64,000 nucleotides of DNA from an uncultured Pseudomonadales bacterium (lineage in GTDB: Bacteria > Patescibacteriota > Microgenomatia > UBA1400 > UBA1396). The notes under the pieces are model-generated. The model had not been told where the DNA came from and ran no database searches. It was given only the letters and a program-made list of their open reading frames with translations. The DNA is taken from NCBI GenBank assembly GCA_964598125.1, contig CAZRAG010000002.1, positions 373-64,372 of the forward strand. The letters are read 5' to 3'. Shown here piece by piece: positions 34,220-57,451 of this stretch (position 1 is the first letter of the stretch; the number at the start of each line of letters is the position of its first letter). Made by a program: the position numbers and the translations under genes.

Positions 34220-34413
34220 CAGAAATATCTTTTGGGAAAGACCGGCTGTCGTTATTACCTTGGGCTAAAGATTCTTCTCTCTCCAGCCTGCGCAATTCTC
34301 CTCAAAATACCTTGTTACTCATACATTGCTTCGTCGAATTGAGCTCTCTCCCAAAGAGTATTTCTGCTATTACTCACCATAAAAATTACCTGGGAGTTCG
34401 ATATACTGACTGA

Positions 34414-39665: not shown

Positions 39666-39733
39666 CTTGAGTAAGGAGTATCCTTGCTCAAGCCAACTCA
39701 ACTTCACTTGAGCAAGGATACTCCTTCTTTTTT
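39666..39733 (+). terminator. family-B palindromic element copy (20-bp stem 'AAGGAGTATCCTTGCTCAAG...CTTGAGCAAGGATACTCCTT' followed by CTTTTTTCG). Acts as a rho-independent terminator after giant gene 1.
   Basis: Read directly. Related copies at 45133-45186, 57565-57623 and 60700-60763. Confidence 0.75.
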
Positions 39734-39748
39734 CGCTACAATGGCTAA

Positions 39749-42700
39749 GTGGGTGTGCGCAAAATCCGATCAGTATCCGCTAAGCGATCCAGAATAGGGT
39801 CTTTTCCCCGTCATTTTTTTTCTTTCCCCAAGCTCTCTTTTACCAATAAACGCTCCCGCTGGCCGCTCCTTATTGCTCTGCTTATTATTCTCGGAGCCAT
39901 TCCGGCCGCCATTTTTCTCAATTCCCGAGCCAAACCGGTAGCCGCCACTTGGTGGAACGCCAGCTGGCAGTATCGGCAGCGGGTGGATATTACCAACGCC
40001 AATGCCTCGGCTCTCACCGATTTTCAGATCAGTTTCAACCTGGACACGGAAACTCTCATAACCGCTGGGAAATTGCAATCAAACTGTTTGGATCTTCGCG
40101 TAACGGATAATCAGGGACAGGAAATTCCATTTTGGATCGAAGAAAATAATCCCGGATGCAACAATGCGGCCACAAAAATCTGGGTCAAAGTTCCCCAAGT
40201 TCCCACTTCTGGAAGCACCATTTATGTTTACTACGGGAATGCAACGGCAACAGCCGCGGTAAATAATGATGGCAACAAAGTTTTTGAGTTTTTCGATGAT
40301 TTTAACGGCAGCGCACTTAATGCAGCCAAGTGGCAAGACTGGTTCACCACCGCTTCCACCAACACCTACACGCAATCGGCTGGTGTACTGCAAATCACCA
40401 CGAGTGGTTGCAACAACGGTCTGCGAACAAAAAATCTTAACCAATCCGACGTACGGATTCGCACGCGCATGATTGGTCAAAGTGATGCTGGTTTGCTGGC
40501 TCGCGTCACTGATAACGACCATCTCTATCTCATGCGAACCGATATCGGAACCGCCGCCACCGACTACTACCTTCGCAACAGCAGTTGGACCAGTCTTGGT
40601 GGAATTTTCACTGATTTTGGAGACTGGAGTGTTTTTCGCATTGTTGAATTCAGGGTCGTTGGCACAGCCCTTTCTTCTACCGTTGACGAACAAACTATGA
40701 ATAGCATCACCAACACCACTTTTACTTCTGGTGGCATTGGCTTGCGCAAATGTGGTGGAAACCCAAGTTTTGACTGGATCGTGGTCGCGAAGCCCGCTTC
40801 ATCGGAACCGACCTCAACCCTCGCCACCGAAGAAACCACTCCCGGCCCCGTGGTAGAACTCAAGTTTGACGAAGGCGGCGGTTCGCAGGCCAAAGACAGC
40901 AGTGGCTTTAAAAATCATGCCAGTGTCCCCAGTTCAACGCAGTGGAAATCCGACGATGAATGTATTTCGGGCAAATGTCTTTTCTTTGATTCCACCGATG
41001 ACCGAATCATCATGTCCAATAATCAAACACTGAACAACACGAAACAACTCGGTTTTAGTTTCTGGTGGAAACCAATGGGGTATCACACAAATTACGCCTA
41101 TCAAATTCTGCGCAAGTTTAGCGGAACCAGTGATGCTAACCTGGCACTCTACTATTTTGGTGACTACAACGGCACATATCCTGAAAACAAAGGTCGCACT
41201 ATGGTTTATGGAACTGCCGGAGGGGCTTGGAAAGGTATCTCCAATCCCTACACCTTTTCCGAGGCAGAACTGGGACAATGGCACCACATTGCGTTTTCCT
41301 ACGATTCTGTTTTGGGTGGTCAACTGTATGTTGATAGCAAACCCGTTGGCGGGCGAACTGGTTCAGGAGAACTGTCAGTTAATACCTATGATCTGATTCT
41401 TGGCTCCGGTTCTATGGCCCAGTACTATGACGATTTTCGCTTCTACCCCTACGCCATCACCCAAGAACAAGTCCTGAAAGACTTCAATCGCGGTTCGGCC
41501 GTGATGATTGGTGCGCAGGAACAAGGAGCGCTCACCAATGGCCAAGTTGGCTACTGGAAGATGGATGAGACTACCGGCACAACGGTTGCTGATTCATCAG
41601 GATTTGGCAACCATGGCACGCTGCTTGGTGCACAAGAAACCGGTACAGCCGAAGCGGCCAGCACCACCACAACTGTCGTTGATACCGCAAGCACCGCCCT
41701 TTCAACCGTGAATGATGCCTACAACGGACAGTATTTGGTAATAACCGGAGGTTCTTGCGGCATAAGCACCAATACTTTTGGGACCATCACCGACTACGAT
41801 GGCACCACCAAAACCCTCACTGTTAGTCCGGCCTTAAGTGCGCAAGTCGATGGCTGTACTTACCAAATCCGCCACCAAAATGCGGGTAAATTCGGCAACG
41901 GCCTAGGCTTTGACAGTAAAGATGACCGAGTCCAAATTGGCAGCTCCACCCAGTTTGATTTGAGTAGCGGTGACTTTGCTCTGGCCTCCTGGATCCGTCA
42001 AACTGGCACCCAAGATTTGCGAAAAATTTTCTTTAAGGGCAACCCTTTTTGTGATGCCTGTGAAGCTGGATATTTTCTGGGCGTTCATGCGGGCAGTCCC
42101 CGTTTCTCTGTCGATTTGAGCAGCAACACCGGTGACATCAAATCGGTCTACAACAACAGTATCTTAGTGAATGATGGCCAGTGGCACCACATTCTGGGAC
42201 AACGAAAGGGCGACATGCTTGAACTTTGGGTGGATGGCTTGCAAGTGGCCACCCTGGCATTACCAACTGGAGCTACTATCAACTACGGCGCGGCATCAAA
42301 TCTGATTATTTCCGATGCTTCCTATGCATTTGATGGTTCTCTGGATGAAGCGCGTATTTTTTCGCGCTCTTTTTCTGCTGATGAAATTGGTAATTTATAC
42401 CGCTATGCTCCCGGACCTACCGCGCACTACAAATTGGACGAGGGTTCAGGCACGACAACCATTACTGATTCCTCCGGCAATAATAATTCTGGCACCATGA
42501 CCGGCTTCGCCGCCAGCTCCTGGGTTCCTGGAAAATTTGGTAAAGCACTCACGTTCTCTCGCAGCACCAGCACACGCATCGATCTGGGCACGCTCTTTAC
42601 CAATGTTTCTACGGGTTTTTCTGGTTCCGTCTGGATAAAACGCAGTGGCACCGCCTACAACAACGACCCTTTGGGAAATAAAATCTACACGGGGAACAAT

Positions 42701-45133
42701 GGTGGTTGGCGAGTCCTTGGCCTTGATACCAATGTATTCTCCTTTGTTGCTTCGACCGGACAGGTCAACTTTGGCACCATTGGTACTGACTGGACGCATC
42801 TGGCTTGGAGTTATGATCCCGTCACCGGTGTTTTAACCACATACGTGAACGGGAAAAAAGCAAATTCCGGTAGTGTCAGTTTTCTCCCCACAACCAACAA
42901 TCTTTTTATGGGCATGGGGTATGGCAGCACCTCCCAAAACTTTATCGGTATTCTTGATGATGTTCGTCTCTATAACTACGCTCGCACCTCGCAGCAAATT
43001 GTGCAGGACATGAATGCCGGCCACCCAACGGGTGGTAGTCCGGTTGGCAGTCAAACGGCGTACTTCCCCTATGACGAAGGCAGCGGCAATACGGCTCACG
43101 AAAAAGTCTCCCCTGTCTATGACGGCACCCTCATGTGTGGTGGCACGAGCTGCACTAACCCCACCTGGAAATCGGATGGTCGGGTGAATTCGGCCATTTA
43201 CTTTAGCGCCGACACCGGAATGCAGGGTGACTACGTCCGCTCCGCACCCATCAATATGGGGACAACTCTTGGTGACAAGCTTACGGCAAGCATGTGGATC
43301 AAACCCGTTGCCACTGAAGACAACTATGGCTGGATCATTCGCAATGGTCATAGTACTGACGAAAACTATTCGGTGAAGTTAACAAACTATTCTGCTGGAA
43401 AATGGCGGGTGGGTGCGGAGTACTACGACACCACTTTTCGTAACATTGCTGGCGCTCAAAATGTGGTTCCCCAAGATACTTGGAGCCATTTGGCTGTGGT
43501 CTTTTCCAACGGTGAATACATAAAAATTTATCTGAATGGCCAGTTCATTGAACAAGTTGCCTGGAGCGGCAGCCCATCCGTCGCGGCGAACACAAACTTT
43601 TATGTTGGCGGTCACGTTGGCACTATTAACCAGTTTTTTGGCGGCTACATTGACGAGGTAAAAATCTATAATTCTGAATTGACTGCGGACCAAATCAAGC
43701 TGGATTACAACTTAGGTGTTTCTTCTAGTTACGGTGGTTCAAGTGTTGACGAGGCCAGCAGTTTGAACGACGGTGCCGGGTCCGCACCGGTGGCCGAGTA
43801 TCATTTTGAAGAAATGACCGGGGCGCAAGCTAAAGACACCAGTGGCAATAATCATAACGGTACCATCACGGGAGCCCAGTGGGAGCCAGCCGGAAAAGAA
43901 GGCGCGGCCCTGCGATTTGATGGAAGTGATTATGTTGACGTGGGTAACGTGGGTGATGAAGCCACAAACTTTACGGTGTCGGCATGGATTAATCCATCAC
44001 TCATGGCCAACCAGGAAATATCGGTCATTACCAAAAGGAATGCTACCACTGCCGGCTGGGCATTAGGAATAAACGCTAACGGAACTACGCCTCTAGTCAT
44101 TTGGCGGACATTCAATGGCGGTGGGCAGTATTCCATCTCAGGGACTCGACAATTAGCTATTAATAACTGGTACTACATTACGGTTGTTCATCAGGATGGT
44201 ACAGCATCTTTGTACGTGAATGGTGTGTTTGATCGCTCAGCCAGTATTACGAATCCAGCTACTGACACCACCGCCTTGAGAATTGGTTATTTGAATGGTG
44301 GTGCAGTAAGTTATCAAGGAAAAATCGATGAAGTAAAAATCTACGACTACGCCCGTACTCCTGCCCAAATCGCTTACGACTATAATCGCGGCGGACCAGT
44401 CGCTCATTACAAACTTGATGAGTGTCAGGGTAGCACCACCTACGACACCAGTGGCGGTAATAATGGAACACTCATTGTTGGTGCAACAGGGGCGCAGACT
44501 TCCGTCGGCACCTGTAATTCCAGTGGTACAGCCTGGGGAAATGGCGCCACCGGCAAGTTTGAATCAAGTCTGAATTTTGATGGCACGGATGATTACATTG
44601 ATACCGTTGCTTCCTCGACTTTACTTCCAGGGGATACTTCTTTTTCTCTTGGTGGATGGTTTAAAACATCAACCCTCTACTCAACAGCTGATAACAATAT
44701 AGGAGGCCGAATTGTGAGCTTGTACCGGAGCGTTGATGGGGCCGGCTTCTCCTCCAAAGTTGGCCTTGGGTTTTATGGGGATAACACCGATACTCTTATG
44801 GTTTTTTCTAATGGGGCCAGTGGATCAACCTCTTTGCGAAAAACCAACAGTGGTTTTAATGACAATCAGTGGCACCATCTCTTCACCACCTATGACAGCA
44901 CAACCAACATACTTAAGCTTTTTTATGATAGCGTGGAAGTGGGTTCGCAAAATGCCAGTACTATCTATTCCTCTGAGTCCGAGCAAATGAAAATTGGAAC
45001 ATTTGGCGGGACGAGTACAACGGGAACCTTTAATGGCCAAATCGACGACGTTCGCGTATACAACTATGCCCTCTCCTCAACGCAAGTCAAACAGGTGATG
45101 AACGAGGGAATGGCGATTAAGTTTAATAACTAA
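39749..45133 (+). CDS. giant surface protein 2 (1794 aa), DUF2341-like + multi-LamG paralog
   Basis: 'WWNASWQYRQRVDITN' DUF2341-like signature, then multiple LamG repeats. GTG start 6 nt after TACAAT. Shares conserved modules with the other three (e.g. 'ARTSQQIVQDMNAGHPTGGSPVGSQ' and 'YDYARTPAQIAYDYNRGGPVAHYKLDECQG'). Confidence 0.85.
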   Translation: MGVRKIRSVSAKRSRIGSFPRHFFSFPKLSFTNKRSRWPLLIALLIILGAIPAAIFLNSRAKPVAATWWNASWQYRQRVDITNANASALTDFQISFNLDTETLITAGKLQSNCLDLRVTDNQGQEIPFWIEENNPGCNNAATKIWVKVPQVPTSGSTIYVYYGNATATAAVNNDGNKVFEFFDDFNGSALNAAKWQDWFTTASTNTYTQSAGVLQITTSGCNNGLRTKNLNQSDVRIRTRMIGQSDAGLLARVTDNDHLYLMRTDIGTAATDYYLRNSSWTSLGGIFTDFGDWSVFRIVEFRVVGTALSSTVDEQTMNSITNTTFTSGGIGLRKCGGNPSFDWIVVAKPASSEPTSTLATEETTPGPVVELKFDEGGGSQAKDSSGFKNHASVPSSTQWKSDDECISGKCLFFDSTDDRIIMSNNQTLNNTKQLGFSFWWKPMGYHTNYAYQILRKFSGTSDANLALYYFGDYNGTYPENKGRTMVYGTAGGAWKGISNPYTFSEAELGQWHHIAFSYDSVLGGQLYVDSKPVGGRTGSGELSVNTYDLILGSGSMAQYYDDFRFYPYAITQEQVLKDFNRGSAVMIGAQEQGALTNGQVGYWKMDETTGTTVADSSGFGNHGTLLGAQETGTAEAASTTTTVVDTASTALSTVNDAYNGQYLVITGGSCGISTNTFGTITDYDGTTKTLTVSPALSAQVDGCTYQIRHQNAGKFGNGLGFDSKDDRVQIGSSTQFDLSSGDFALASWIRQTGTQDLRKIFFKGNPFCDACEAGYFLGVHAGSPRFSVDLSSNTGDIKSVYNNSILVNDGQWHHILGQRKGDMLELWVDGLQVATLALPTGATINYGAASNLIISDASYAFDGSLDEARIFSRSFSADEIGNLYRYAPGPTAHYKLDEGSGTTTITDSSGNNNSGTMTGFAASSWVPGKFGKALTFSRSTSTRIDLGTLFTNVSTGFSGSVWIKRSGTAYNNDPLGNKIYTGNNGGWRVLGLDTNVFSFVASTGQVNFGTIGTDWTHLAWSYDPVTGVLTTYVNGKKANSGSVSFLPTTNNLFMGMGYGSTSQNFIGILDDVRLYNYARTSQQIVQDMNAGHPTGGSPVGSQTAYFPYDEGSGNTAHEKVSPVYDGTLMCGGTSCTNPTWKSDGRVNSAIYFSADTGMQGDYVRSAPINMGTTLGDKLTASMWIKPVATEDNYGWIIRNGHSTDENYSVKLTNYSAGKWRVGAEYYDTTFRNIAGAQNVVPQDTWSHLAVVFSNGEYIKIYLNGQFIEQVAWSGSPSVAANTNFYVGGHVGTINQFFGGYIDEVKIYNSELTADQIKLDYNLGVSSSYGGSSVDEASSLNDGAGSAPVAEYHFEEMTGAQAKDTSGNNHNGTITGAQWEPAGKEGAALRFDGSDYVDVGNVGDEATNFTVSAWINPSLMANQEISVITKRNATTAGWALGINANGTTPLVIWRTFNGGGQYSISGTRQLAINNWYYITVVHQDGTASLYVNGVFDRSASITNPATDTTALRIGYLNGGAVSYQGKIDEVKIYDYARTPAQIAYDYNRGGPVAHYKLDECQGSTTYDTSGGNNGTLIVGATGAQTSVGTCNSSGTAWGNGATGKFESSLNFDGTDDYIDTVASSTLLPGDTSFSLGGWFKTSTLYSTADNNIGGRIVSLYRSVDGAGFSSKVGLGFYGDNTDTLMVFSNGASGSTSLRKTNSGFNDNQWHHLFTTYDSTTNILKLFYDSVEVGSQNASTIYSSESEQMKIGTFGGTSTTGTFNGQIDDVRVYNYALSSTQVKQVMNEGMAIKFNN

Positions 45134-45186
45134 AAGGAGTCTCCCTGATCGAGTGCCTTTGGGTTCTCTTGATCAGGGAGACTCCC
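45133..45186. repeat. family-B palindromic element copy ('GGAGTCTCCCTGATCGAG...CTTGATCAGGGAGACTCC'), followed at 45205 by a degenerate 'TGATAAACCTCTCTCC' flank motif
   Basis: Read directly. Confidence 0.7.
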
Positions 45187-45719
45187 TATCCAAGCAACCT
45201 CTTTCTTGCCTGATAAACCTCTCTCCCTGGTTAGAATCTTGTCAGTTTTTGGTTGTATGTTACTTCTGTGACGTCAAGGTCGTTCATTATTCTTTCAAAG
45301 GTCCATGTTGTTTTTGAAACATTTCAAAACGCCCTTCTTCATCCATCAGTAGCAAAAGTACTCGGTGAAAAAATCATTGAACTGGGAAATCTTCTCCTTA
45401 TAGGTTTAGTCGTTACCGAAATCCTCCAAATAAACATTCGAGCTACGCCTATTAGTATGGGATTCATCGGATTTTTACTATGCTACACTTTGGGTGTGCT
45501 CATTCTGAGAAATGGAAAGGAGACACCATGACACTCTTTGGCGAATCACTCAATTTCTACATCATTTTTGGTGGGCTTTATTTGTTTCTTGGAGTCATGT
45601 TTCTCTTGGTTCTCACAGGCAAGAAAAAGAAAAAATAACTTCTTTTCTCACAGCACACTTTCACTTTTGAGTTTTCCTTCTCTGTAGTCCGTCCCACATA
45701 ATTCCACTACAATGACTAG

Positions 45720-48700
45720 GTGGGAGTTACCAAAGTTCGATCAGTGTCTGCCAGGCGAGCAATACCAAAAATTGGCTGGCCTTTTAGCAGATTTTCATTT
45801 CGACTGCCAACGCTCACTTTTACAAAAAAGCGTTCTCGTTGGCCCCTCCTTGTCGCCCTTCTTTTTCTCCTCATTGCCCTTCCTACCGCGTTCTATCTCA
45901 ACTCCCGCACTCCAAAAGTCGAAGCTGCCTGGTGGAATCCTGGGTGGGCGTACCGTCAGCGAATTGCCATTACCAATAGTAACGGGAGCGACTTAACCGA
46001 TTTTCAAGTCAGCTTTACCCTTGATACTGCTGCTCTCATTACCAACGGCAAACTGCAAAATGATTGTGATGATCTGCGAATCACCGATCATCTTGGAAAA
46101 GAACTCCCGTTTTGGATTGAAGAAAATAATCCTGGCTGTAACAACTCCGCTACCAAGATTTGGACCAAGGTACCAAATATCCCCACCAGTGGCGCCGCTC
46201 TGTACGTGTACTACGGCAATATCTCCGCTACAAATAACGAAAAAGGAAATGAGGTTTTTCCTTTTTTTGATGGTTTTAATTCTGCTGCCCTAAACACACA
46301 AATTTGGGGGAACACCGGAACTTATAATTTTGCTTCAGGTGCAATCACCGTAACAGCTGGCGCGGTGTACTCAAAGTCAACCATCTTGTCGACCAACCAA
46401 AACTACGTGTATGAAATGCGCAGTAAATGGGCGGCTGGTGGCAGTCAGTGGGCGGGACTCGATATTGCGAGTACTCAAAGCGTCTTAAGTAGCAACAGCG
46501 GCGCCAGTGCCTTGACTTTCTTCATGACGCTCAACGGCACACCAACTTTGGGAGCATACGTTTCGTCAGGTGTCTCTGGCTATAACGTGACCGGTGGGAC
46601 ATCACAATTTACCACCACTCCTAATACTTACGAAGTCATTGGCTACACGCACACACCAACTACGTTAAGTTTTTATCGAAATCAAACCCTTACCAATTCG
46701 TATTCCGACACTGCCAACTTTGCCCCGTATGTATGGCTGGGCTATTTTATGGGAGCGGGTTCGGGTTCGCAGGACATTATGGACATGACGGTTGACTGGG
46801 TCCGTGTCCGCAAGTATGCCGCTACCTCTCCCGCCACCACTTTAGCGACGGAAGAAAGTACCCCTGGCCCAGTCGCTCACTGGAAATTCGACGAGGGTGG
46901 TGGCAGCGCCATCAAAGATAGTAGTGGCAATAATCGAACTGGCACCCTTTCCAACGCCACTTGGTCAACAGGTGATTGTGTAAGCGAAAACTGTCTCCAA
47001 TTCAACGGGACCAATGGTTATGCCGATACCGGTTATGACTACAGCATGGAATACAACTCCAGCACAAGTTTTTCGGTATGGATCAGACCGTCAACCATCA
47101 ACACCGGCGGAAAAGTCAAAACGATTTTGGGCAAAGTGAGTTATGAATACATTCTCTCGCAACTTGATGACACAATTATGTTCCGCCAATGGACTGATTC
47201 TGGCAACGACACAATTGCGATCCAAACACCGAGTATTTTGGAAGCAAATCAGTGGTATCAAATCACCCTTGTGTATGATGGGACCGCTCACACTACCAAT
47301 CTGTATGTGAATGGTACTCTGCAAGCGAGTGGCGCCAACTTGCAACCGTCGTTTGTGAACCGAACCGAGACATTGAAAATAGGCTATGGGTATGGTTGGA
47401 ACGTTTCACCCACACCCTATTTTTCCGGAAAAATTGATGAGGTAAAAATTTTTCCCTATGCTCTTACCGCTGCTCAAATTAAAAAAGAGTTGAACTTTGG
47501 ATCAGCCGTAACCGTGGGCTTTGAAAACCAAGGGAGTCTGGGCGAGGGTTTAGTGGCTTATTGGCCCATGAACGAAACTACTGGCACGACCATCGCCGAT
47601 TATTCTGGCAACAATGCCACGGTGACACTCACCAACGCCCAAGAGACCGGCACCAGTGAAGCGGCCGGCACCACTACTCTTGTAGTCGACGCGGATAACG
47701 CAACCATTTCCAACTATGACGATGCCTATAACGGCATGGTTATGGAGGTTACCGGAGGAGCGGGTTGTGGGATAGGATCTGGTTCAAGCAATCGGATTCG
47801 CTTTATCACTGATTATGTTGGTGCAACAAAGACCTTTACCGTGGGCAGCGCCTTTCCCGCCGAAACCGATAACTGTACTTTTCAAGTTTTGCATCAAAGT
47901 CGTGGGAAATTTGGAGGTGGAGTCTACCTTGATGGTGTGAATCATGAAGGTGGCAACGACACTATGGAACTCACGGATATTCGTTTTGATTCCGATGATC
48001 CTTGGTCTTACTCGGTTTGGCATAGAATTCCCGCTGGCTCAACGGTTAACTGGAATAGTTTTTTTGGTGGACCCCAAAGTGGTTATGGTGGCTACTGGCA
48101 GTACCATGGCGGTGGCAATCTCATGTGGTATCAAGATTACTACGAGAGTACGGTGTATGGAATCAACGATAGCGTCGTGAATTTTGGAGATGAATTGCCC
48201 TACGACAAATGGTTCATGCTAACGCTCACCTATACGCCCACTGATACCTTGCACGGTACGGCAAAAATTTATGTCGACAGTGAGCTCGTGCATTCAAGAA
48301 GTGTCACGCTCAGTGCTCGTACCACCTACTTTACCGTGGACAAACTTGCGGGGGCAGGTGGGCGATCTTTTGAAGGCCATATGGATGAGGCCCGTTTATA
48401 TAACCGTGTACTGGCCGACAGCGAAATTGTTAATCTCTACCGCTGGGCACCAAAACCAAAAGCCTACTATCCCCTTGATGAGGGTACCGGGACAACCACG
48501 ATCGACAAAGGCGGTGGCACCAGTGTCACTGCGAGTAGCACCACCTGGACCGCTGGCAAATATGGCCAGGCACTGCATTTTAATGGCACAAGCTCAACAG
48601 TGGACATTCCGAATATTTCCCACCCCTATGCGTTTACCAAAATGGCTTGGGTCAAAATTCACGCCGCTGACTGTGTTAACGAGAGTCGTTGTTCTATCTT

Positions 48701-51065
48701 GGCGCCCTATTTTGAAATTGTCAGCAATGGTCAGTTGCAAATGTATTCGTATCAGCTGAACCCGAATGGCTGGCATTCCAGTACAGTGAATCCAGGTGAT
48801 AATGTTTGGACACACGTAGCCGTTTCCTATGATGGCGTGTATCTGCGATTGTTTGTAAACGGAAAGCAGACAAAAGAAGTTGCCGCTTCTCAGCTTCGTT
48901 ACTTTGACGACACGACCCACCTTGGATCTCTTTCGAATATTCGGTGGTTTGCCGGTGATATTGATGAGGTGAAGGTGTACGACTACGCCCGTACCACCCA
49001 ACAAATTGTCCAGGACATGAATGCAGGTCATCCGGTTGGTGGCAGTCCAGTGGGGAGTCAGTTGGCGTACTGGAAGCTAGATGAAGCGAATGGAACAACG
49101 GTACATGACAGCGTTTCCAGTAATGTGGGTACCATTGCCAGTCCTATTTGGTCAAACAGCTGCAAAACAAATAGCTGTCTGCAGTTTGACGCTACGGATC
49201 GATCAGTCACCGGAAACTTAGCAAGTTCAGTGGCAAATCAATCTTTTACTATCACTGGTTGGATTTTTCAGGATAGCGACGCCCCGTCCGCAAACAGTTG
49301 GTTCTCTTTAGGCGGTGGTGGGACAAACAGCTGGATCCACCTGCGCATGTATTCCAACGGTACCATGCGTTTTGGTTTTTACTCTAATGACTTGGATTCT
49401 CCTTCTGGTGTTTTTACGCGCAATGTTTGGCATCATGTGGCGTATACCTATGATGCGGCGAGTAAAGTTCGTGGTATCTGGCTTGATGGAAAACAAGTGG
49501 CGAGTGCCGTTTCAACCTCAGATTTTTTGGGTTCGGCTGCTTATACCATTGGTAAATTTGCTAGCGAATACTGGAAAGGAAAAGTGGATGAAGTCAAAAT
49601 GTACTCCTCTGCCCTTACCGCCGAACAAATCGCCATTGATATGAATGGCGGCGCCTCTACCAATTATGGGACGGGAAGTAATGAGGCGGCCTCTCTGAAT
49701 GATGGTGCTGGTGACGCGCCCATCTTGGAATATAACTTTGATGAAATGACGGGAACAACCGCCAAAGATACCAGCGGTCAAAATGGCAACGGGACAATTA
49801 ATGGTGCCACTTGGAATGCCACCGGCAAGAGTGGCAGTGCCCTGGAATTCGATGGCAGCTCGGGTTACGTGGATTTGTATAGTTCGAGTTTTGCAAATGC
49901 TTTCAACACGGCTGAAGGAACGGTTCATGCATGGGTAAAAGTGAGAGATAGTTCTGTCTGGTCCGACAGCACCCTTCGAAGAATTTTTCTCATCCGTACA
50001 GATATTAACAATTACGTCTCCGTATACAAGTTAGCGGATAATCAACTTTCTGGAATCTACAGAGCTAATGGCGTAAGTGAATCGGTGAGTTTTACTCAAA
50101 CTCCAACTGACTTTTTCTTGGTAACTATTACTTGGAGTAAATCCGATGACGAGGTGAGGGTGTATTTCAACGGAAAACAACAGGGATCCACCCAAACCGG
50201 TTTAGATACCTGGGTTGGAAGCCTCAGTACGAATATGTGTTTGCTTGGTTCCAATAGTATGCCGTCGGCTACGTATGTGTGGAATGGCCTTATCGACCAA
50301 GTTCGAATCTATGATTACGCCCGCACTCCCGCTCAGATCTCTTACGATTACAATCGTGGGGCACCAGTGGCCCAGTACAAGTTTGATGAGTGCCAGGGGG
50401 CAACGGTTTACGACACCAGTGGCAACAACTTGCATGGAACTTGGAGTGGCAGCAGCGGGACGCAAACTTCGGTGGGTACTTGTACCACCAGTGGTTCGGC
50501 TTGGGGAAATGGCGCCAGTGGAAAGTATTCAAGTAGTCTCAACTTTGATGGCTCAGACGACATGATTACCGTTCCCCACCCAACTGGTGGCCAACTCGAC
50601 TTTGGCAGTACATCCAGCTTTAGCATGGCTGCTTGGGTAAAAACAAGCGACACCACCGGAACATACCACACCATTTTAGAAAAGGGTGGATACTCCACAA
50701 CCAGCCGCTTTACCTTGTTTACCTATGGTGACGGAAAAGCTCGCGTCTATATTGCCGATGGCACGACAAGTCGGAATATCCAAAGCAATAGCACCGTCAA
50801 TGACGGCCAATGGCACCATATTGTGGGACAGATAAATCGTGAGGACTCCACCATTCAAATTTTCATTGACGGAAAACTTGATCAAACTGCCCCCCTGAAT
50901 TTGTCTGGATCAGTAACGAGTACCAACGTTTTACGAATTGGTGGACCTGGACCTTTTTCATTCAACGGACAAATAGATGATGTCCAAATTTTTAACTACG
51001 CTTTGTCTGCCGACCAAATTGCCAAGGTGTACAACCAGGGCTCGTCGATCCGGTTTGGGAACTAA
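45720..51065 (+). CDS. giant surface protein 3 (1781 aa), DUF2341-like + multi-LamG paralog
   Basis: 'WWNPGWAYRQRIAITN' DUF2341-like signature, then LamG repeats. GTG start 6 nt after TACAAT. Shares the conserved C-terminal module 'YDYARTPAQISYDYNRGAPVAQYKFDECQG...SGSAWGNGASGK'. Confidence 0.85.
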   Translation: MGVTKVRSVSARRAIPKIGWPFSRFSFRLPTLTFTKKRSRWPLLVALLFLLIALPTAFYLNSRTPKVEAAWWNPGWAYRQRIAITNSNGSDLTDFQVSFTLDTAALITNGKLQNDCDDLRITDHLGKELPFWIEENNPGCNNSATKIWTKVPNIPTSGAALYVYYGNISATNNEKGNEVFPFFDGFNSAALNTQIWGNTGTYNFASGAITVTAGAVYSKSTILSTNQNYVYEMRSKWAAGGSQWAGLDIASTQSVLSSNSGASALTFFMTLNGTPTLGAYVSSGVSGYNVTGGTSQFTTTPNTYEVIGYTHTPTTLSFYRNQTLTNSYSDTANFAPYVWLGYFMGAGSGSQDIMDMTVDWVRVRKYAATSPATTLATEESTPGPVAHWKFDEGGGSAIKDSSGNNRTGTLSNATWSTGDCVSENCLQFNGTNGYADTGYDYSMEYNSSTSFSVWIRPSTINTGGKVKTILGKVSYEYILSQLDDTIMFRQWTDSGNDTIAIQTPSILEANQWYQITLVYDGTAHTTNLYVNGTLQASGANLQPSFVNRTETLKIGYGYGWNVSPTPYFSGKIDEVKIFPYALTAAQIKKELNFGSAVTVGFENQGSLGEGLVAYWPMNETTGTTIADYSGNNATVTLTNAQETGTSEAAGTTTLVVDADNATISNYDDAYNGMVMEVTGGAGCGIGSGSSNRIRFITDYVGATKTFTVGSAFPAETDNCTFQVLHQSRGKFGGGVYLDGVNHEGGNDTMELTDIRFDSDDPWSYSVWHRIPAGSTVNWNSFFGGPQSGYGGYWQYHGGGNLMWYQDYYESTVYGINDSVVNFGDELPYDKWFMLTLTYTPTDTLHGTAKIYVDSELVHSRSVTLSARTTYFTVDKLAGAGGRSFEGHMDEARLYNRVLADSEIVNLYRWAPKPKAYYPLDEGTGTTTIDKGGGTSVTASSTTWTAGKYGQALHFNGTSSTVDIPNISHPYAFTKMAWVKIHAADCVNESRCSILAPYFEIVSNGQLQMYSYQLNPNGWHSSTVNPGDNVWTHVAVSYDGVYLRLFVNGKQTKEVAASQLRYFDDTTHLGSLSNIRWFAGDIDEVKVYDYARTTQQIVQDMNAGHPVGGSPVGSQLAYWKLDEANGTTVHDSVSSNVGTIASPIWSNSCKTNSCLQFDATDRSVTGNLASSVANQSFTITGWIFQDSDAPSANSWFSLGGGGTNSWIHLRMYSNGTMRFGFYSNDLDSPSGVFTRNVWHHVAYTYDAASKVRGIWLDGKQVASAVSTSDFLGSAAYTIGKFASEYWKGKVDEVKMYSSALTAEQIAIDMNGGASTNYGTGSNEAASLNDGAGDAPILEYNFDEMTGTTAKDTSGQNGNGTINGATWNATGKSGSALEFDGSSGYVDLYSSSFANAFNTAEGTVHAWVKVRDSSVWSDSTLRRIFLIRTDINNYVSVYKLADNQLSGIYRANGVSESVSFTQTPTDFFLVTITWSKSDDEVRVYFNGKQQGSTQTGLDTWVGSLSTNMCLLGSNSMPSATYVWNGLIDQVRIYDYARTPAQISYDYNRGAPVAQYKFDECQGATVYDTSGNNLHGTWSGSSGTQTSVGTCTTSGSAWGNGASGKYSSSLNFDGSDDMITVPHPTGGQLDFGSTSSFSMAAWVKTSDTTGTYHTILEKGGYSTTSRFTLFTYGDGKARVYIADGTTSRNIQSNSTVNDGQWHHIVGQINREDSTIQIFIDGKLDQTAPLNLSGSVTSTNVLRIGGPGPFSFNGQIDDVQIFNYALSADQIAKVYNQGSSIRFGN

Positions 51066-51077
51066 AAAGACAAGCAT

Positions 51078-51165
51078 TCAGGAATATCTTCGCACACACT
51101 TTAGCCTGGAAGGATATTCCTAGGAATATCCTTCCAGAGGAAAACATTGGTAAAGATATTCCTTG
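51078..51165. repeat. nested palindromic element, family A, copy 2, lying between giant genes 3 and 4
   Basis: 'TCAGGAATATCTTC...CCTGGAAGGATATTCCTAGGAATATCCTTCCAGAGG...GTAAAGATATTCCTTG'. Confidence 0.8.
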
Positions 51166-51204
51166 CACGTAGTCCACGTATGGCAATTCCTTTACAATGA
51201 ATGG

Positions 51205-54200
51205 GTGGGAGTTACCAAGTTACAATCAGTCTCGGTGCGCCGCCGGCAAAGCAGGCGGCGAGGGTTTCGGGCATTCCGACTTGCTGGTTTTCGATTTCCC
51301 AAAGTCCCCTTTTCGTTACCCCATTTGCTAACCAACAAACAACTCCTTAACCCACGCCGTTCTCGTTGGCCGCTCCTTTTGGGCATTTTGTTTTTACTGA
51401 TTGGCATTCCGACAGCATTTTGGCTCAACTCCCAAACAGAGGAGGTTGCCGCCTGGTGGAACCCTGGCTGGATGTACCGCCAACGTGTCGATATCACCAA
51501 TGGCAGCGGCAGTAATTTAACTGATTTTCAAATTGGCTTTACTCTCGACACCGCTGCACTCATCACTGCTAGCAAACTACAAAATGATTGTGATGACCTA
51601 CGAATTACTGACCATCAGGGGACTGAACTCCCGTACTGGATTGAAGAAAATAGTCCTGGTTGTAATAATGCTGCAACTAAAATTTGGGTGAAGTTACCTT
51701 CAATTCCAACAAGTGGTGGATCATTCTTTCTGTACTACGGAAATGCTCAGGCTATAAAGTCGGCAGACCAAAATGGAAACAAGGTTTTTGTCTTTTTTGA
51801 TGATTTTTCAGCCACTTCCATCGACGCCTCAAAATGGACACAAGGAACAATCGCCGCCACCTCTGGAACAAATTTTTCTATTTCATCAGGCAAGCTGATT
51901 GGCGGAAATACGAACCGCTACATTCAATCGGTCAACACCTTTACAGGTGATTACATAGCCGAGACTAGGGTTTATGAAACAACCGCTGCCAATAATGGGT
52001 TTACCAGCATCGGCTTTTATGCTTCTTCGAGTAACACCATTAGCATCCTTAACCATAGCGGAACATTTTATGTACGAAACGACTCCGCTTGGCCAAGTTA
52101 TGGAAGCTACACAAAAGATCAATGGGAACACGACAAAATTAAAGTCGTTGGAACAACGGCCACACTCTGGAAAGTTGGAGAATCGTCGGGTTCGCTCACA
52201 GGATCCCCAACAAATAGCGGAATTAGTGGCGAGTACTTTCGAATTGGTCCTCGTGGTGATGATGGCGCATACAATCAAAATTATTCTGCCTCTTGGGACT
52301 GGGTGTATGTGCGCAAAGCCGTCACAACCGAACCTTCAACCTCACTCCAATCCGAAGAAACCACCCCGGGACCCGCCGCCTACTGGAAGCTCGATGAGGG
52401 AAGTGGAAGCACCATCAAAGATTCGGTCAACAATAACACCGGTACCATCAATGGCGCCGAGTGGAAACCGGAAACTGAGTGCGTTTCCGGAAAATGTCTC
52501 TACTTTGATGGCACAACTGACTTTGTTTCGGTGGCCAATAACAAAACGCTTAACCCCACTGAACAACTCTCTGTTTCCTTGTGGGTGAAAAATCAGCGAG
52601 CCACTGGCAAACATACCTTTTTACTCAAAAAGGCCAATGGGGTTGGCGGCTATGGCTTTTATTTAACAACCACGGACACTCTCAGTTTTTTTGTGTACTA
52701 CTTTTCGGGTAGTCCTAACTATCAATTTTGCGAAATTCCTGCTTATACCCTTCCCAAAGATCAGTGGACCCATCTCACTGGCCAGTTCAAGACCAATGAT
52801 TTCCTTAAAATTTTTGTAAATGGCGTAGAAAAAGTAAGTTGTGTCCCCAGTCAGAGCACCAATCTTGGCGTTGATACCAGCACTTTAAATTTGGGATACC
52901 AAGGGTGGTGGGGAGCAGACAATGCTTACTTTAAAGGATATCTCGATGAAATAAAAATCTTCCCCTACGCCCGTACTCAGGAACAAATTCTGCAGGACTA
53001 CAACCTTGGTTCAGCAGTGGCAATTGGTCAGCAACAGCAGTCGTACATGAGTGAAGGCTTAGTGGGCTACTGGAAAATGGATGAAGCCAGTGGCACCACG
53101 GTAGCCGATGCCTCCGGCAATGGACGAACCGGCACCCTCACCAACGCCCAAGAAACTGGCACCGGCGAAGCGGCTGGAACAAACACAACGCTGGTAGATG
53201 CTGACAATACGGCACTATCCGCCGACGACGATACCTATAACGAAATGATTCTGGAGGTTACTGGTGGCGTTGGCTGCGGTATTGCTATCGGGCAAAAAAG
53301 GTTCATCTCTGACTATACCGGATCCACCAAGACTCTCACTGTTTCCTCTGCCTTTACGGCCGAAACCGATAGTTGTACTTTTTTGATTGACCATCATGGC
53401 ACCGGCAAGTTTGGTTCTGGATTGGCTTGTTCCGGAAAATCTTCTGGAGCAAATAGCGGTGATTTTGTGAGTGTTTCTCTTCCCAGCATGAATGAAGTAA
53501 GTGCCTTTACCTGGTATAAATTTCACCCACGAGGAACTGGCTCAAACACCATTATGCGCATGCAAAATGATGACATTGGAATAACCATCAATCCAAGCGG
53601 CCCGTCGCGTTTCCACATTGACTCATATGCCACGCTCTTTTCCTACATCGATATTCCCAATTCAGCTGATGGAAATTGGCATTACATTGGCCTCACCTAT
53701 GACGGCACCACTATGACGGCTTACTTTGATGGCCAAGCCATTGGCACGAAAACAGGAAGCTACAGCATCGCCGCTGGAACCATGAATATTGGTGATCGTA
53801 GCGACGGCTATGGAGAACATTTCAATGGCTGGATTGACGAAACGCGCGTCTACAACCGCGCCCTCAAACCAGACGAAATAGCCAGCCTCTACCGGTTTGC
53901 ACCAGGTCCAGTGGGTTACTGGAAAATGGATGATGGCAGTGGGAGCACCGCTACCGACAGTTCCGGCAATGGCAACAATGCCGCCCTCGACGGTTCGACC
54001 TATTGGCGTGATGGAAAGTTTGGAGGATCTCTCCTCAATAGTTTTTCAAGTGGGTCGGATGGAGTTATCACCCAGACCGCAATCTTAAATCCTCTCGCTC
54101 CAAATCTGACTGTTGAAGCCTGGTTCAAGGTGAACGCCTACAACGCTACCCACTGGCAAACCATTGTTGAAGGCAGTGGAAGTCTCAATGCAGGTACAGG

Positions 54201-56556
54201 CTATTACCTTGGCTTCCCACCAGCATCAAGTACTAACCTTTACTGGCGGGTGGGTAATGGTACCGTCTTCGACGCGGACATCAACTACGCGAATCACGGA
54301 ATTCAAGTTGGCGATTGGGTCCATGTCGCCGGAACTCTCGGGCCAACGACTGCCAAAATGTATGTTAACGGAAAACTTGTCAAGACGGATCCCCACACCA
54401 TTTTCAATATCGGATATGGCGTCTATCCCATTACCATTGGCAGTCTCTCCTATGCAACAGGCGCCCACACTCTTGACGGTTTGATCGATGAAGTCCGCAT
54501 TTACAACTACGAACGAACGGCTCAGCAAATCGTTGAAGACATGAATGCTGGCCACCCCGCAGGCGGAAGTCCCGTGGGAAGTCAACTCAGCTATTGGCCT
54601 TTTGATGAGCAAAATGGAACAGTTGCTCACGATCGTACCCAGACACAAAATCTCACCGTTACAAGCGCGAGCTGGAAATCTCAATCAGACTGCAAGGTGA
54701 ATGGCTGTTTGGACTTTGACAACGGCGTAGCTGGCAGTACCGCTTATTTCGATGACACGACCGCCAGTATTTATGATCTCACGAACGATTTTACATTTGG
54801 CGCCTGGGTGTATCGAACAGGCACACCAGAATCCCAAGCCAGAATTATTAGCAAAGGAGACCGATATCTTTTATACACAACCAATACCAATATTGTGCAG
54901 TGTCACATGCAGGGGCTTACGCCGACAGCTCTATCTGCAACATCTGCTCTGCCACTCAACTCATGGACTCATGTACTGTGTACGTACAAAGACAATGTCC
55001 GCAAACTCTACATTGATGGTGTCCTCAATGCACAAGACGCTCCCACCGGAACCATGACTCCTGATGATCTTGACCTGGTCATTGGTAACTTTAGTACACC
55101 AGGTGATAGTTATCGTTTCCGGGGAAAGATTGACGAAGTAAAGCTCTATTCTTCTGCTCTCACAGCGGAACAGGTTAAACTCGAAGTGAATCAAGGCTCT
55201 TCGGTGGCTTATGGAGGAACAACAAGTGAAGCCTCCGATTTAAGTGATGGAGCAGGCAATCCGCCGGTCTTGGAATGGAAATTTGACGATAAAACCGGCA
55301 CCTCGGTTACCGACACCAGCGGTAATGGCAATAACGGCAGCATTGTTTCGACACCGAGCTGGAAGTCGAGCAGTTCGTGCAACGAAGGATCTTGTCTCGA
55401 ATTTACCTCAAATTCCCAGTATGTTACGGCTGCCGACCCTGGCACCAGTGTTCTCGATATTACCGGACCAGTAACTCTGGAGGCTTGGGTATGGTGGGAT
55501 CAGTTCAAGGATTACGGTGTTGTTGCCAATAAAGGAAGCGGAGGCACAGCCGCAACATTCAACTATGGTATCTGGTCATATTCAACATCGATAAACTGTT
55601 TTATCGGCAATGGTACAGCAACCAATAGCTTGGGATATAACGCTGCCCTTGTTAGTACTAATGCTTGGCACCATCTTGTGTGTGTCGCTGATGGAACAAA
55701 TCTTTCCATGTATATTGATGGCAAACGAGTAACTCAAGTGGGCCAAACAGTCACTCCCGCCGCTAACAATGCAGCCTTTATTGTGGGAGAAAATGGTCGA
55801 TCAGTTGATGGGAAAATCGATACTGTTAAAGTCTACAACTACGCCCGTACTCCCGCCCAAATCGCCTATGATTACAACCGCGGTACACCTATCGCCCACT
55901 GGAAACTCGATGAGTGCCAAGGCACCACTCTCAACGATAGCAGTGGCAACAACTATTCCGGAACCTGGAGCGGCAGTGGCGGCACGCAAACCTCAGCCGG
56001 CACCTGCACCACCGCCAGCACCGCTTGGGGAAATGGTGAGTCAGGAAAGTTTAATGGGAGCCTTAATTTTGATGGTACAGATGACAGGATTTCGATTCCA
56101 GGTGCCACAAATATCACGGTAGGAAATGATATTACCGTTTCGGCCTGGGTAAAAACCACAGCTTACTCTCAAGAACCATTTGTCAGCAATCGGTCTGGGG
56201 CTGGTGGCCGAATGTACTTTGGTTTGGGTTTGGGGAAAGCCTTTTTATATTACAGTGGTGCATCTCCAGCAGGAGTCAACGGGACAGCTCGCATTGACGA
56301 CAACGTTTGGCATCACGTAGTTTATGTCCGTTCAGGCACAACCACTACGCTCTATGTAGATGGAAAACAGGATGCCACAGCCACTCAGACTGGTGTTGGT
56401 GCATATGCCGACACCATGTATGTTGCTCATGATGTAGCCAATAATGAATATTATCCTGGACAAATTGACGACATCCAAATCTTTAACTACGCCCTTTCGG
56501 CTGATCAAATCGCCAAACTCTATAATGGCAGTTCGGCTGTTCGTTTTGATGATTAA
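51205..56556 (+). CDS. giant surface protein 4 (~1783 aa from the GTG start), DUF2341-like + multi-LamG paralog
   Basis: 'WWNPGWMYRQRVDITN' DUF2341-like signature, then LamG repeats. The conserved GTGGGAGTTACCAAG start lies 6 nt after TACAAT, and the ORF-track ATG at 51163 is upstream of that promoter. C-terminal module 'YNYARTPAQIAYDYNRGTPIAHWKLDECQG'. Confidence 0.85.
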   Translation: MGVTKLQSVSVRRRQSRRRGFRAFRLAGFRFPKVPFSLPHLLTNKQLLNPRRSRWPLLLGILFLLIGIPTAFWLNSQTEEVAAWWNPGWMYRQRVDITNGSGSNLTDFQIGFTLDTAALITASKLQNDCDDLRITDHQGTELPYWIEENSPGCNNAATKIWVKLPSIPTSGGSFFLYYGNAQAIKSADQNGNKVFVFFDDFSATSIDASKWTQGTIAATSGTNFSISSGKLIGGNTNRYIQSVNTFTGDYIAETRVYETTAANNGFTSIGFYASSSNTISILNHSGTFYVRNDSAWPSYGSYTKDQWEHDKIKVVGTTATLWKVGESSGSLTGSPTNSGISGEYFRIGPRGDDGAYNQNYSASWDWVYVRKAVTTEPSTSLQSEETTPGPAAYWKLDEGSGSTIKDSVNNNTGTINGAEWKPETECVSGKCLYFDGTTDFVSVANNKTLNPTEQLSVSLWVKNQRATGKHTFLLKKANGVGGYGFYLTTTDTLSFFVYYFSGSPNYQFCEIPAYTLPKDQWTHLTGQFKTNDFLKIFVNGVEKVSCVPSQSTNLGVDTSTLNLGYQGWWGADNAYFKGYLDEIKIFPYARTQEQILQDYNLGSAVAIGQQQQSYMSEGLVGYWKMDEASGTTVADASGNGRTGTLTNAQETGTGEAAGTNTTLVDADNTALSADDDTYNEMILEVTGGVGCGIAIGQKRFISDYTGSTKTLTVSSAFTAETDSCTFLIDHHGTGKFGSGLACSGKSSGANSGDFVSVSLPSMNEVSAFTWYKFHPRGTGSNTIMRMQNDDIGITINPSGPSRFHIDSYATLFSYIDIPNSADGNWHYIGLTYDGTTMTAYFDGQAIGTKTGSYSIAAGTMNIGDRSDGYGEHFNGWIDETRVYNRALKPDEIASLYRFAPGPVGYWKMDDGSGSTATDSSGNGNNAALDGSTYWRDGKFGGSLLNSFSSGSDGVITQTAILNPLAPNLTVEAWFKVNAYNATHWQTIVEGSGSLNAGTGYYLGFPPASSTNLYWRVGNGTVFDADINYANHGIQVGDWVHVAGTLGPTTAKMYVNGKLVKTDPHTIFNIGYGVYPITIGSLSYATGAHTLDGLIDEVRIYNYERTAQQIVEDMNAGHPAGGSPVGSQLSYWPFDEQNGTVAHDRTQTQNLTVTSASWKSQSDCKVNGCLDFDNGVAGSTAYFDDTTASIYDLTNDFTFGAWVYRTGTPESQARIISKGDRYLLYTTNTNIVQCHMQGLTPTALSATSALPLNSWTHVLCTYKDNVRKLYIDGVLNAQDAPTGTMTPDDLDLVIGNFSTPGDSYRFRGKIDEVKLYSSALTAEQVKLEVNQGSSVAYGGTTSEASDLSDGAGNPPVLEWKFDDKTGTSVTDTSGNGNNGSIVSTPSWKSSSSCNEGSCLEFTSNSQYVTAADPGTSVLDITGPVTLEAWVWWDQFKDYGVVANKGSGGTAATFNYGIWSYSTSINCFIGNGTATNSLGYNAALVSTNAWHHLVCVADGTNLSMYIDGKRVTQVGQTVTPAANNAAFIVGENGRSVDGKIDTVKVYNYARTPAQIAYDYNRGTPIAHWKLDECQGTTLNDSSGNNYSGTWSGSGGTQTSAGTCTTASTAWGNGESGKFNGSLNFDGTDDRISIPGATNITVGNDITVSAWVKTTAYSQEPFVSNRSGAGGRMYFGLGLGKAFLYYSGASPAGVNGTARIDDNVWHHVVYVRSGTTTTLYVDGKQDATATQTGVGAYADTMYVAHDVANNEYYPGQIDDIQIFNYALSADQIAKLYNGSSAVRFDD

Positions 56557-56951: not shown

Positions 56952-57167
56952 AGAGCTTGCTCGCTCATTTCAGCATAACTTCGTTACTGGCTGATTCGCT
57001 GCGCTTCCTCAGATAGTTGAGCGTAATGCGCCTCGCGGTATCAGTTTCTCTTTCGAATACCCGCTCGTGTGCATTACTTTGCTCAAGTATCGAACTCGCC
57101 TACGGCTGAATTCACCTCCAGCGGGATTCACAAACAAAAAATCCGCCCATGGCGGATATTTCGTTTG

Positions 57168-57240
57168 TGGACCCAAGGAGATTCGAACTCCTGACCTCTT
57201 CATTGCAAATGAAGCGCTCTACCAACTGAGCCATGGGCCC
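57168..57240 (-). tRNA. tRNA-Ala (anticodon TGC)
   Basis: Acceptor GGGCCCA with a G3:U70 pair, anticodon loop 'TTTGCAA', T-loop GGTTCGAATCC. 73 nt, CCA not encoded. The terminator hairpin 'ATCCGCCATGGGCGGAT' + T-run follows on the minus strand. Confidence 0.85.
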
Positions 57241-57377
57241 AACCACCGAGTTGTTCTTTTAGATATTTTCTCTTTTTGACAAAATCTAAAACAATTTTCT
57301 TCTCCATCAAAGTTTTTACTTTACAACGAATCTCAAGGCTTTAGCCTTCGTGAGGTGTAAGGGGAAAACTTTGATTG

Positions 57378-57451
57378 TGAGAGTACCTGGACTCGAACCA
57401 GGGACCTCTGTCTTATCAGGACAGCGCTCTAACCAACTGAGCTATACTCTC
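57378..57451 (-). tRNA. tRNA-Ile (anticodon GAT)
   Basis: Acceptor GAGAGTA/TACTCTC, anticodon loop 'CTGATAA', T-arm CCTGG-TTCGAGT-CCAGG. 74 nt. Confidence 0.85.

Follow-up and report, generated by a model that had tools for sequence, protein, structure and literature searches.

Putative leaderless, GTG-initiated mRNAs for four tandem giant surface protein genes in an uncultured member of the Patescibacteriota

Results and discussion

Four tandem giant genes with a -10-like hexamer 6 nt before GTG

Contig CAZRAG010000002.1 (GenBank assembly GCA_964598125.1), deposited under an uncultured Pseudomonadales bacterium and placed by GTDB in the Microgenomatia (Patescibacteriota), carries four giant open reading frames (ORFs) in tandem on the plus strand, and the way in which these genes start is the subject of this analysis. 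The 64,000 nucleotides analyzed (positions 373 to 64,372 of the contig) are called the window and are numbered from its first letter. Gene 1 (34414-39633, 1739 aa), gene 2 (39749-45133, 1794 aa), gene 3 (45720-51065, 1781 aa) and gene 4 (51205-56556, 1783 aa counted from its GTG) each have 1,739 to 1,794 codons and encode proteins with a basic N-terminal segment and a transmembrane (TM) helix, followed by DUF2341 and six Laminin_G_3 (LamG) domains. The N-terminal TM segment, which is the anchor in gene 1, is visible in the protein alignment, and Pfam matches were found in all four proteins to DUF2341 (E = 1e-11 to 2e-23) and, in six stretches, to Laminin_G_3 (E = 1e-117 to 4e-141). With a TM anchor, DUF2341 and Laminin_G_3 repeats, these proteins belong to the DUF2341/LamG type of giant surface protein.

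All four genes start with GTG, and in all four the GTG is preceded, across a gap of exactly 6 nt, by a hexamer of the form TAyAmT. This is TATACT in gene 1 (34402-34407; spacer gactga, GTG at 34414) and TACAAT in gene 2 (39737-39742, cgcTACAATg; spacer ggctaa, GTG at 39749), gene 3 (45708-45713; spacer gactag, GTG at 45720) and gene 4 (51193-51198; spacer gaatgg, GTG at 51205). An earlier sequence-only reading had picked out these four strings, its ranges opening 3 nt before the hexamers, and had argued from the spacing that there is no room for a Shine-Dalgarno (SD) sequence. The argument holds, as the hexamer occupies positions -12 to -7 counted from the G of GTG and no SD lies between. With the hexamer so placed, RNA polymerase should start at or near that G.

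The GTG as the probable translation start

The first residues of the four giant proteins read MGV(T/R)K(L/I/V)(K/R/Q)SVS; past codon 10 conservation is weak and indels occur. Two further homologues are present in a relative with approximately 80% nucleotide identity (JGI Ga0265297 and ENA loci L069 to L072), where they follow TACAAT-gactca-GTG (L071) and TACAAT-gagaac-GTG (L072). GTG at gap 6 is thus found in six of six giant-family genes, behind six different spacers and at approximately 50% amino-acid identity. Among these six 5' ends, five, two and eight of nine sites vary at the first, second and third positions, respectively, of codons 2 to 10, and the replacements are conservative (L/I/V, K/R/Q and S/T); codon 9 (Val) alone appears as GTT, GTA, GTG, GTC and ATA. 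Third-position wobble at the giant 5' ends, on which the sequence-only reading had relied, is therefore borne out, and codons 2 to 10 are coding in the GTG frame. The competing 'WELP' frame, which would start at the ATG inside TACAATG, is unconserved as had been proposed: its ORFs in the six homologues are 47 (with no ATG), 18, 94, 44, 5 and 5 aa long, and the ATG is missing in gene 1.

An in-frame stop codon adjoins the GTG on its 5' side in genes 1, 2 and 3 (TGA, TAA and TAG, respectively). There is no in-frame ATG, GTG or TTG upstream of the GTG in genes 2 and 3 or in L072, so the conserved decapeptide can be produced only from the GTG. The gene 4 ORF is open upstream as far as TTG 51163, and its start was set by homology and by the gene caller. 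Ahead of the TM helix, gene 2 has only the start codons at 39749 and GTG 39755, and in gene 3 the only alternative start between the GTG and the helix is GTG 45744. The gene caller of the public collection used the GTG for genes 2 to 4 and ATG 34444 for gene 1; conservation of codons 1 to 10 argues that this automated call for gene 1 is 10 codons short. When the giant N-terminus was compared with the protein collection, a single match was obtained, with a different N-terminus.

The same geometry at other genes in the window

To count starts blindly, the first ATG, GTG or TTG of each non-overlapping ORF of 100 aa or longer was taken and the motif ignored. Of the 39 window genes so obtained, 10 had TANNNT at gap 6 (0.45 expected, P = 2e-11), and any other gap from 0 to 20 was occupied in between none and three of the 39. 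The strict form TA[CT]A[AC]T stood at gap 6 in seven of the 39 (P = 4e-16), and the gap-6 excess persisted when the giant paralogues were collapsed to one (P = 9e-9). Conversely, for 11 of the 77 strict hexamers on both strands, an ORF of 100 aa or longer begins at gap 6.

With curated starts, the gap-6 box precedes 14 of 37 window genes. Apart from the four giants these are, on the plus strand, the genes at 5605 (MFS transporter; cgcTAGAGT-N6-ATG, 5593-5607), 7238 (cupredoxin-like; TACCAT-N6-ATG, 7226-7240), 21693 (TGcTACAAT-N6-ATG, 21678-21695) and 60810 (HD domain; cgcTACAAT-N6-ATG, 60798-60812). On the minus strand they are the genes at 13107 (TAAGAT-N6-ATG, 13105-13119), 17931 (inositol monophosphatase; TGcTACAAT-N6-ATG, 17929-17946), 18344 (cupin; TGcTATAGT-N6-ATG, 18342-18359), 20503 (619-aa hypothetical protein; TACAAT-N6-ATG, 20501-20515), 29685 (GAPDH; TGcTACACT-N6-ATG, 29683-29700) and 31777 (PGK; TATAAT-N6-ATG, 31775-31789). 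The sequence-only reading had listed three genes besides the giants. All three are real, since 21693 and 60810 have TACAAT at gap 6 of an ATG and the plus-strand GT4 glycosyltransferase gene has cgcTACAAT (hexamer 3760-3765, element 3760-3775) at gap 7 of ATG 3773, but the list was an undercount, missing eight gap-6 starts (5605, 7238, 13107, 17931, 18344, 20503, 29685 and 31777).

Gaps of 7 to 9 occur at 3773, 2005, 57666, 12377, 27571 and 32912. A second, weaker spacing mode of 8 to 9 nt is seen at 12377, 27571, 32912, 9108 and 10242 (+), as well as at the PGK starts of two more distant relatives (L077 and L078), and gtTACAAT-N9-ATG lies inside the 3' end of a histidine-kinase gene, ahead of a response regulator. 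Such sites may represent very short leaders or internal promoters.

Outside the positions used for selection, the 14 gap-6 sites share C or T at -15 (13/14), G at -14 (9/14, P = 0.0014), C at -13 (9/14), C at -10 (9/14), A at -9 (12/14), A at -8 (10/14) and a purine at -6 (14/14). The resulting consensus, yGCTAcAATr, fits a sigma-70-type and partly extended -10 element. The full TGn of an extended -10 is present at four of the 14 sites (17931, 18344, 21693 and 29685), while positions -15 and -14 at the giant promoters are CG, CA or CT. Start codons at gap 6 are exclusively ATG or GTG, every non-giant gap-6 gene in the window using ATG; the lack of TTG is expected if +1 is a purine and the 5'-terminal codon is RTG.

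Proposed transcription units, terminator-like hairpins and Shine-Dalgarno-led genes

The upstream similarity of the four giant paralogues begins at approximately -14 and continues into the ORF, whereas further 5' the alignment shows that they have diverged. TAGTCC stands exactly 17 bp 5' of the -10 hexamer at gene 3 (45685-45690), at gene 4 (51170-51175) and at L072. It matches TTGACA at three of six positions and is at best a weak -35.

In each of the spacers between giants, the stop codon is closely followed by a very stable hairpin; stem lengths are 20, 18 and 15 bp, in that order. The hairpin between genes 1 and 2 (39673-39726) is followed by CTTTTTTC, and together they form an intrinsic-terminator-like element (39673-39734; spacer minimum free energy (MFE) -50 kcal/mol, z = -6.5) that ends 3 nt before the TACAAT of gene 2. 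This leaves no room for a separate promoter and leader, barring read-through. The hairpins 3' of gene 2 (45136-45185, z = -6.65) and gene 3 (51106-51137, z = -6.3) are without a T-tract, which is found after the first hairpin only. All three have common palindromic cores of the GGAGTATCC / GGAATATCC type, and the third is nested within a second inverted repeat (outer repeat 51079-51165). They may be duplicated terminators, or may also be protein-binding palindromes.

Strong gap-6 boxes are confined, in this small sample, to genes with an intergenic spacer of at least 38 nt. The overlapping genes at 6849, 7785, 8348 and 59414 are without strong boxes, and overlapping or operon-internal genes in general have either an SD or nothing in place of the box. 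The restriction of boxes to genes preceded by a spacer favours a promoter over a non-SD ribosome-binding site. No SD was found within the 6-nt spacers of the gap-6 sites. Genes led by an SD are those at 1220, 14173, 27303, 29889, 32059 and 45528; at 29889 the GGAGGG upstream, seen in the sequence-only reading as a normal SD, is confirmed and kept in a relative. The last of these is a mini-ORF of 36 aa (45528-45638, +) within the 586-nt spacer between giants 2 and 3, too short for the list of ORFs of at least 150 aa. It has a canonical SD (AAAGGAGA) and encodes a hydrophobic membrane protein, MTLFGESLNFYII[FY]GGLYLFLGVMF[LF]LVLT[GA]KKKKK, which ends in KKKKK and is conserved in L072 (1416-1526). 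The 3' part of the 16S rRNA gene (63700-64000, minus strand) ends in ...GGATTACCTCCTTTCT, with the anti-SD intact (3' end ...CCTCCTTTCT, CCTCC retained). From the intact anti-SD and the SD-led mini-ORF it appears that this organism uses both initiation systems.

Conservation in relatives

In the relative with approximately 80% identity, box and gap of the PGK and GAPDH orthologues (L069) are retained while their flanks have diverged. PGK keeps ggTATAAT-N6-ATG with a different spacer (accggc versus acgcgc), and GAPDH keeps TTGcTACACT-N6-ATG across a three-codon N-terminal indel. The PDZ gene of the same locus has TATACT-accctc-GTG. The SDs of SD-led genes are likewise retained (AGAGGA, AAAGGA and GGAGGG). 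The automated start of PGK in L069 is 46 codons too long (1493 versus 1631) and ignores ggTATAAT-N6-ATG.

Four more distant relatives (L077 to L080; 65 to 72% PGK identity) gave 64 starts as called by the collection's own gene caller. TANNNT stood at gap 6 in 19 of these (P = 1.5e-21) and at gap 8 in nine, and approximately 20 of the 64 had an SD. Among the 19 starts with the box at gap 6, three were GTG and none was TTG. Outside the giant family, GTG recurs at the PDZ gene of L069 and at L077 2544, L078 2358 and L078 14346. The gap of PGK in more distant relatives is 6 to 8. Among low-GC loci of the candidate phyla radiation (CPR), the gap-6 box preceded 24 of 115 naive starts (3.1 expected, P = 7e-15). 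A complete metagenome-assembled genome (MAG) labelled 'Saccharibacteria' (L001) has tTGcTATTAT-ttaagg-GTG, and in many Dojkabacteria homologues the ATG follows cTGcTATCAT or TATTAT after N6-8.

Homologues of the giant N-terminus occur mostly in CPR MAGs, those of Dojkabacteria/WS6 and of Shapiro-, Woese-, Roizman- and Komeilibacteria. Named PGK homologues belong to Candidatus Cerribacteria (49% identity) and 'Patescibacteria group' (44%). Taken together, these homologues point to a Patescibacteria/CPR bacterium that probably lies close to the Microgenomates. An identical 4.5 kb of window sequence is present in run SRR6488407.

Leaderless initiation and its alternatives

That the giants have leaderless GTG-initiated mRNAs, as the sequence-only reading proposed, is supported by all sequence tests, namely geometry, motif, conservation, operon position and start codons, and we put the probability of leaderless GTG-initiated transcription at approximately 0.8. 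Each giant gene would be its own transcription unit with a sigma-70-type promoter dominated by the -10 element, the -35 being weak or absent. The housekeeping sigma factor would recognise yGCTAcAATr, and RNA polymerase would start at the G of GTG, a purine 7 nt past the hexamer, or within 1 to 2 nt of it; a leader of 1 to 3 nt and a truly leaderless end look the same in sequence. The product would be a 5'-triphosphate mRNA with neither a 5' untranslated region (UTR) nor an SD. By analogy with known leaderless mRNAs, initiation would take place right at the 5'-terminal GUG, presumably by 70S ribosomes carrying fMet-tRNA, and we infer this mode of recruitment on the giant mRNAs to give a protein with the N-terminus MGV(T/R)K..SVS. 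Initiation at a 5'-terminal RTG is supported by the codon-position pattern, the adjoining stops and the ATG/GTG-only gap-6 starts. Roughly a third of the genes, if not more, may share this architecture, both in the window and in related Patescibacteria, the remaining genes presumably relying on conventional SD pairing with the intact anti-SD.

Several points weigh against this interpretation. The four giants are paralogues and not four independent observations, and the position of the mRNA 5' end is one that we infer from the place of the box. TAGTCC accompanies three of the six giant-family promoters, and no recognisable -35 was found at the others. A generic sigma-70 scan left the giant sites unflagged because it demands at least four of six -35 matches; the same scan scored shuffled sequence as richer in promoter-like sites than the real one, and the loop limit of the terminator scan missed large hairpins. 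Read-through from upstream genes, or extra promoters such as the 586-nt spacer before gene 3 might hold, has its place in the uncertainty. In the predicted MFE structures, C-rich codons further downstream bind the 5' GUGGGAG, a pairing that, if real, would hamper leaderless initiation. Finally, efficient use of a leaderless GUG has to be assumed for this lineage.

The alternatives are improbable even when all four are added together. The least improbable, though unlikely, is that the mRNA has a leader without an SD, made from an upstream promoter or by read-through, and that the GTG is found SD-independently (by S1 or standby binding or by 70S scanning), TACAAT being a conserved A/U-rich element of translation and no promoter. 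This would suit the weak -35 elements, the presence of a T-tract at just the first inter-giant hairpin and the 586-nt spacer, which could house another promoter, and start-proximal non-SD initiation motifs are known from other phyla (group B, PMC6028130). However, the combination of TAnnnT, G at -14, C at -13 and an occasional TGn goes beyond A/U-richness and is a promoter-type consensus. The motif is also fixed to the nucleotide at the canonical distance of a -10 from +1, it is missing from overlapping and operon-internal genes, gap-6 starts are ATG or GTG without TTG, and a hairpin with T-tract lies directly 5' of the gene 2 box. A functionless hexamer, arising by coincidence or inherited upstream of tandem duplicates, is effectively refuted: upstream of approximately -14 the giants have diverged past recognition, yet six homologues that share approximately 50% amino-acid identity all keep the hexamer and its gap, and the geometry recurs at ten unrelated window genes and at 19 of 64 starts in relatives.

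Two further explanations accept the conserved 5' ends and read them differently. One, which we regard as quite improbable, places the true start downstream (for example at ATG 34444) and makes the conserved 30 or so nucleotides after the GTG a 5' UTR or regulatory RNA. The choice of ATG 34444 by the gene caller agrees with it, as do the hairpin and T-run at 34446-34468 in gene 1 and the ability of the 5' GUGGGAGU to pair with a conserved GYUCNCGY 110 to 150 nt downstream in six of six homologues; yet the 5/2/8 codon-position pattern and the conservative replacements in codons 2 to 10 contradict it, gene 2, past 39755, lacks any start codon up to the TM helix, gene 3 offers just GTG 45744, the same gene caller used GTG in genes 2 to 4, and the giant 5' ends have no Rfam match. 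The long-range helix is without compensatory change, with a consensus energy of -3.8 kcal/mol and a chance of approximately 0.3 of arising by accident. The other explanation, more improbable still, is stop-start coupling, in which ribosomes finish an upstream short ORF at the TGA, TAA or TAG and reinitiate at the neighbouring GTG. Three of four giants have such a stop, but the in-frame stretches before genes 2 and 3 (26 and 6 codons) contain no ATG, GTG or TTG, and gene 4, L071 and L072 carry tgg, tca and aac instead. The stops are explained by the conservation of T at -3 with purines after it, as TRR spells a stop codon in three of its four forms. Termination-reinitiation was rejected on the lack of an upstream start (genes 2 and 3 and L072) and of an adjoining stop in three of six homologues.

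RNA structure at the giant 5' ends

A search of the whole window with Rfam returned a 16S fragment and four tRNAs only. Single-sequence folds of the giant 5' ends had z-scores from +1.2 to -2.6. RNAalifold gave one long-range helix, in which GUGGGAGU pairs with the RSR codons; in gene 1 this joins 34414-34421 to approximately 34525-34545, and equivalents exist in genes 2 to 4, L071 and L072. The GYUCNCGY partner encodes the conserved RSR of a KRSRWPLL motif, and the pairing is probably a by-product of coding conservation. A structured 5' element was judged unsupported on the lack of covariation, the weak energy and the chance expectation. GC-rich hairpins follow directly after codon 10 in gene 1 (34446-34468, then TTTCTTTTG) and gene 4 (51233-51262); these are unconserved in genes 2 and 3.

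Comparison with known systems

A Pribnow box 6 to 8 nt from the start codon is the published signature of bacterial leaderless genes (GeneMarkS-2 group C, PMC6028130), a group of Actinobacteria and Deinococcus-Thermus in which approximately 25 to 50% of transcripts are of the leaderless type (PMC6028130). The window resembles group C in having a TANNNT box at the first genes of operons, coexisting SD-led genes and a weak -35. There is a sharp TANNNT spike at gap 6, the spacer is free of SDs while SD genes and the anti-SD are found elsewhere, and the box is limited, in a small sample, to the first genes of transcription units. It differs from group C in belonging to a Patescibacteria/CPR lineage and in its more specific consensus, yGCTAcAATr. 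Furthermore, group C genomes with genetic code 11 are reportedly almost all high-GC (MetaGeneMark-2 preprint, 10.1101/2022.07.25.500264), whereas this genome has 47% GC and related low-GC loci 32 to 39% (32 to 49% over these genomes).

In mycobacteria a 5'-terminal ATG or GTG, but not TTG, is necessary and sufficient for a leaderless start (PMC4633059). The use of ATG and GTG without TTG, and conservation of the geometry across orthologues, are common to mycobacteria (Shell et al. 2015) and the genes described here. Many GTG leaderless mRNAs of mycobacteria encode short regulatory ORFs (PMC8459731), whereas here the conserved, putatively leaderless GTG heads surface proteins of approximately 1,780 aa. 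Leaderless mRNAs that begin with GUG are poorly initiated in Escherichia coli and Caulobacter (PMC8459731, PMC4633059): non-AUG starts make up 4.4% of the leaderless mRNAs in Caulobacter, in E. coli GUG retains < 10% activity, and GUG leaderless mRNAs are less translated in Caulobacter and Haloferax and slightly less in Mycobacterium smegmatis (PMC8459731). The missing 5' UTR and the start-proximal -10 box would be shared with Caulobacter crescentus and E. coli; in contrast to their preference for AUG, GTG is found in six of six giant-family genes and recurs elsewhere. Initiation by 70S ribosomes on leaderless mRNAs has been reviewed (PMC8459731, PMC9031893).

Bacteroidota of group B (PMC6028130) also have an A/T-rich motif near SD-less starts. 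Their motifs precede all genes, including operon-internal ones, whereas here internal genes are without the motif, which has a promoter consensus and coexists with an intact 16S anti-SD and SD-led genes. A group B-type non-SD ribosome-binding site was rejected, given the absence of the motif at internal genes and the conservation of SDs between relatives. With extended -10 sigma-70 promoters the window shares TGcTAnnnT at four sites, the enrichment of G at -14 and a seemingly dispensable -35, although most sites have CGC and not TGC at -15 to -13.

Scope and significance

This is an established bacterial leaderless architecture and not a new kind of system. What is new is the lineage, a consensus narrower than TANNNT and a conserved GTG at the head of very large structural genes. 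No study of leaderless initiation in CPR, Patescibacteria, Saccharibacteria or TM7x was found in the open-access literature. A wider claim, that leaderless initiation is a major and lineage-wide mode in this part of the Patescibacteria/CPR branch (relatives of Microgenomates and Dojkabacteria of mid to low GC with the standard code), with a 5'-terminal GUG that is fully competent and selectively kept at the giants, is tentative, and we would not quite put it at even odds. GTG has been kept even though ATG is one transition away and neighbouring third positions have turned over. Selection for lower translation or a preference for G as the initiating nucleotide are both speculative reasons for this invariance; if the leaderless reading is true, expression of the giants may be tied to the GTP rather than the ATP pool of initiating nucleotides.

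CPR bacteria, or Patescibacteria, are known almost only from MAGs, and gene callers are tuned to SD signals. Their huge surface proteins are thought to mediate episymbiosis. If leaderless initiation is as common as it seems here, CPR would be a further leaderless-rich lineage alongside Actinobacteria, Deinococcus-Thermus and archaea, and the start codons annotated in CPR MAGs would have to be revisited systematically. A yGCTAcAATr-N6-RTG rule would correct N-termini and the signal-peptide and anchor predictions of huge surface proteins, and would offer usable promoters for emerging CPR genetics. Alongside mycobacteria, CPR would also provide a second group of bacteria with a seemingly functional GUG at the mRNA 5' end. 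Ribosomes of CPR bacteria are reduced and have a short bS1 (PMC9297842), and a link with leaderless initiation would be plausible. If such a lineage, which branches deeply, is counted among the leaderless-rich bacteria, this would bear on the ideas that leaderless initiation is ancestral or accompanies simplified ribosomes.

Other features of the window

Upstream of the giants, a 435-aa protein (32912-34219, +) has a weak C-terminal match, below cut-off, to T4SS_pilin (PF18895, E = 1e-4), a family typical of CPR bacteria. The 16S 3' end lies 6.2 kb from the genes for tRNA-Ile(GAT) (57377-57451) and tRNA-Ala(TGC) (57167-57240), both on the minus strand. Four protein genes on the opposite strand stand between them and no 23S rRNA gene follows next; the rRNA genes are apparently either split or unlinked.

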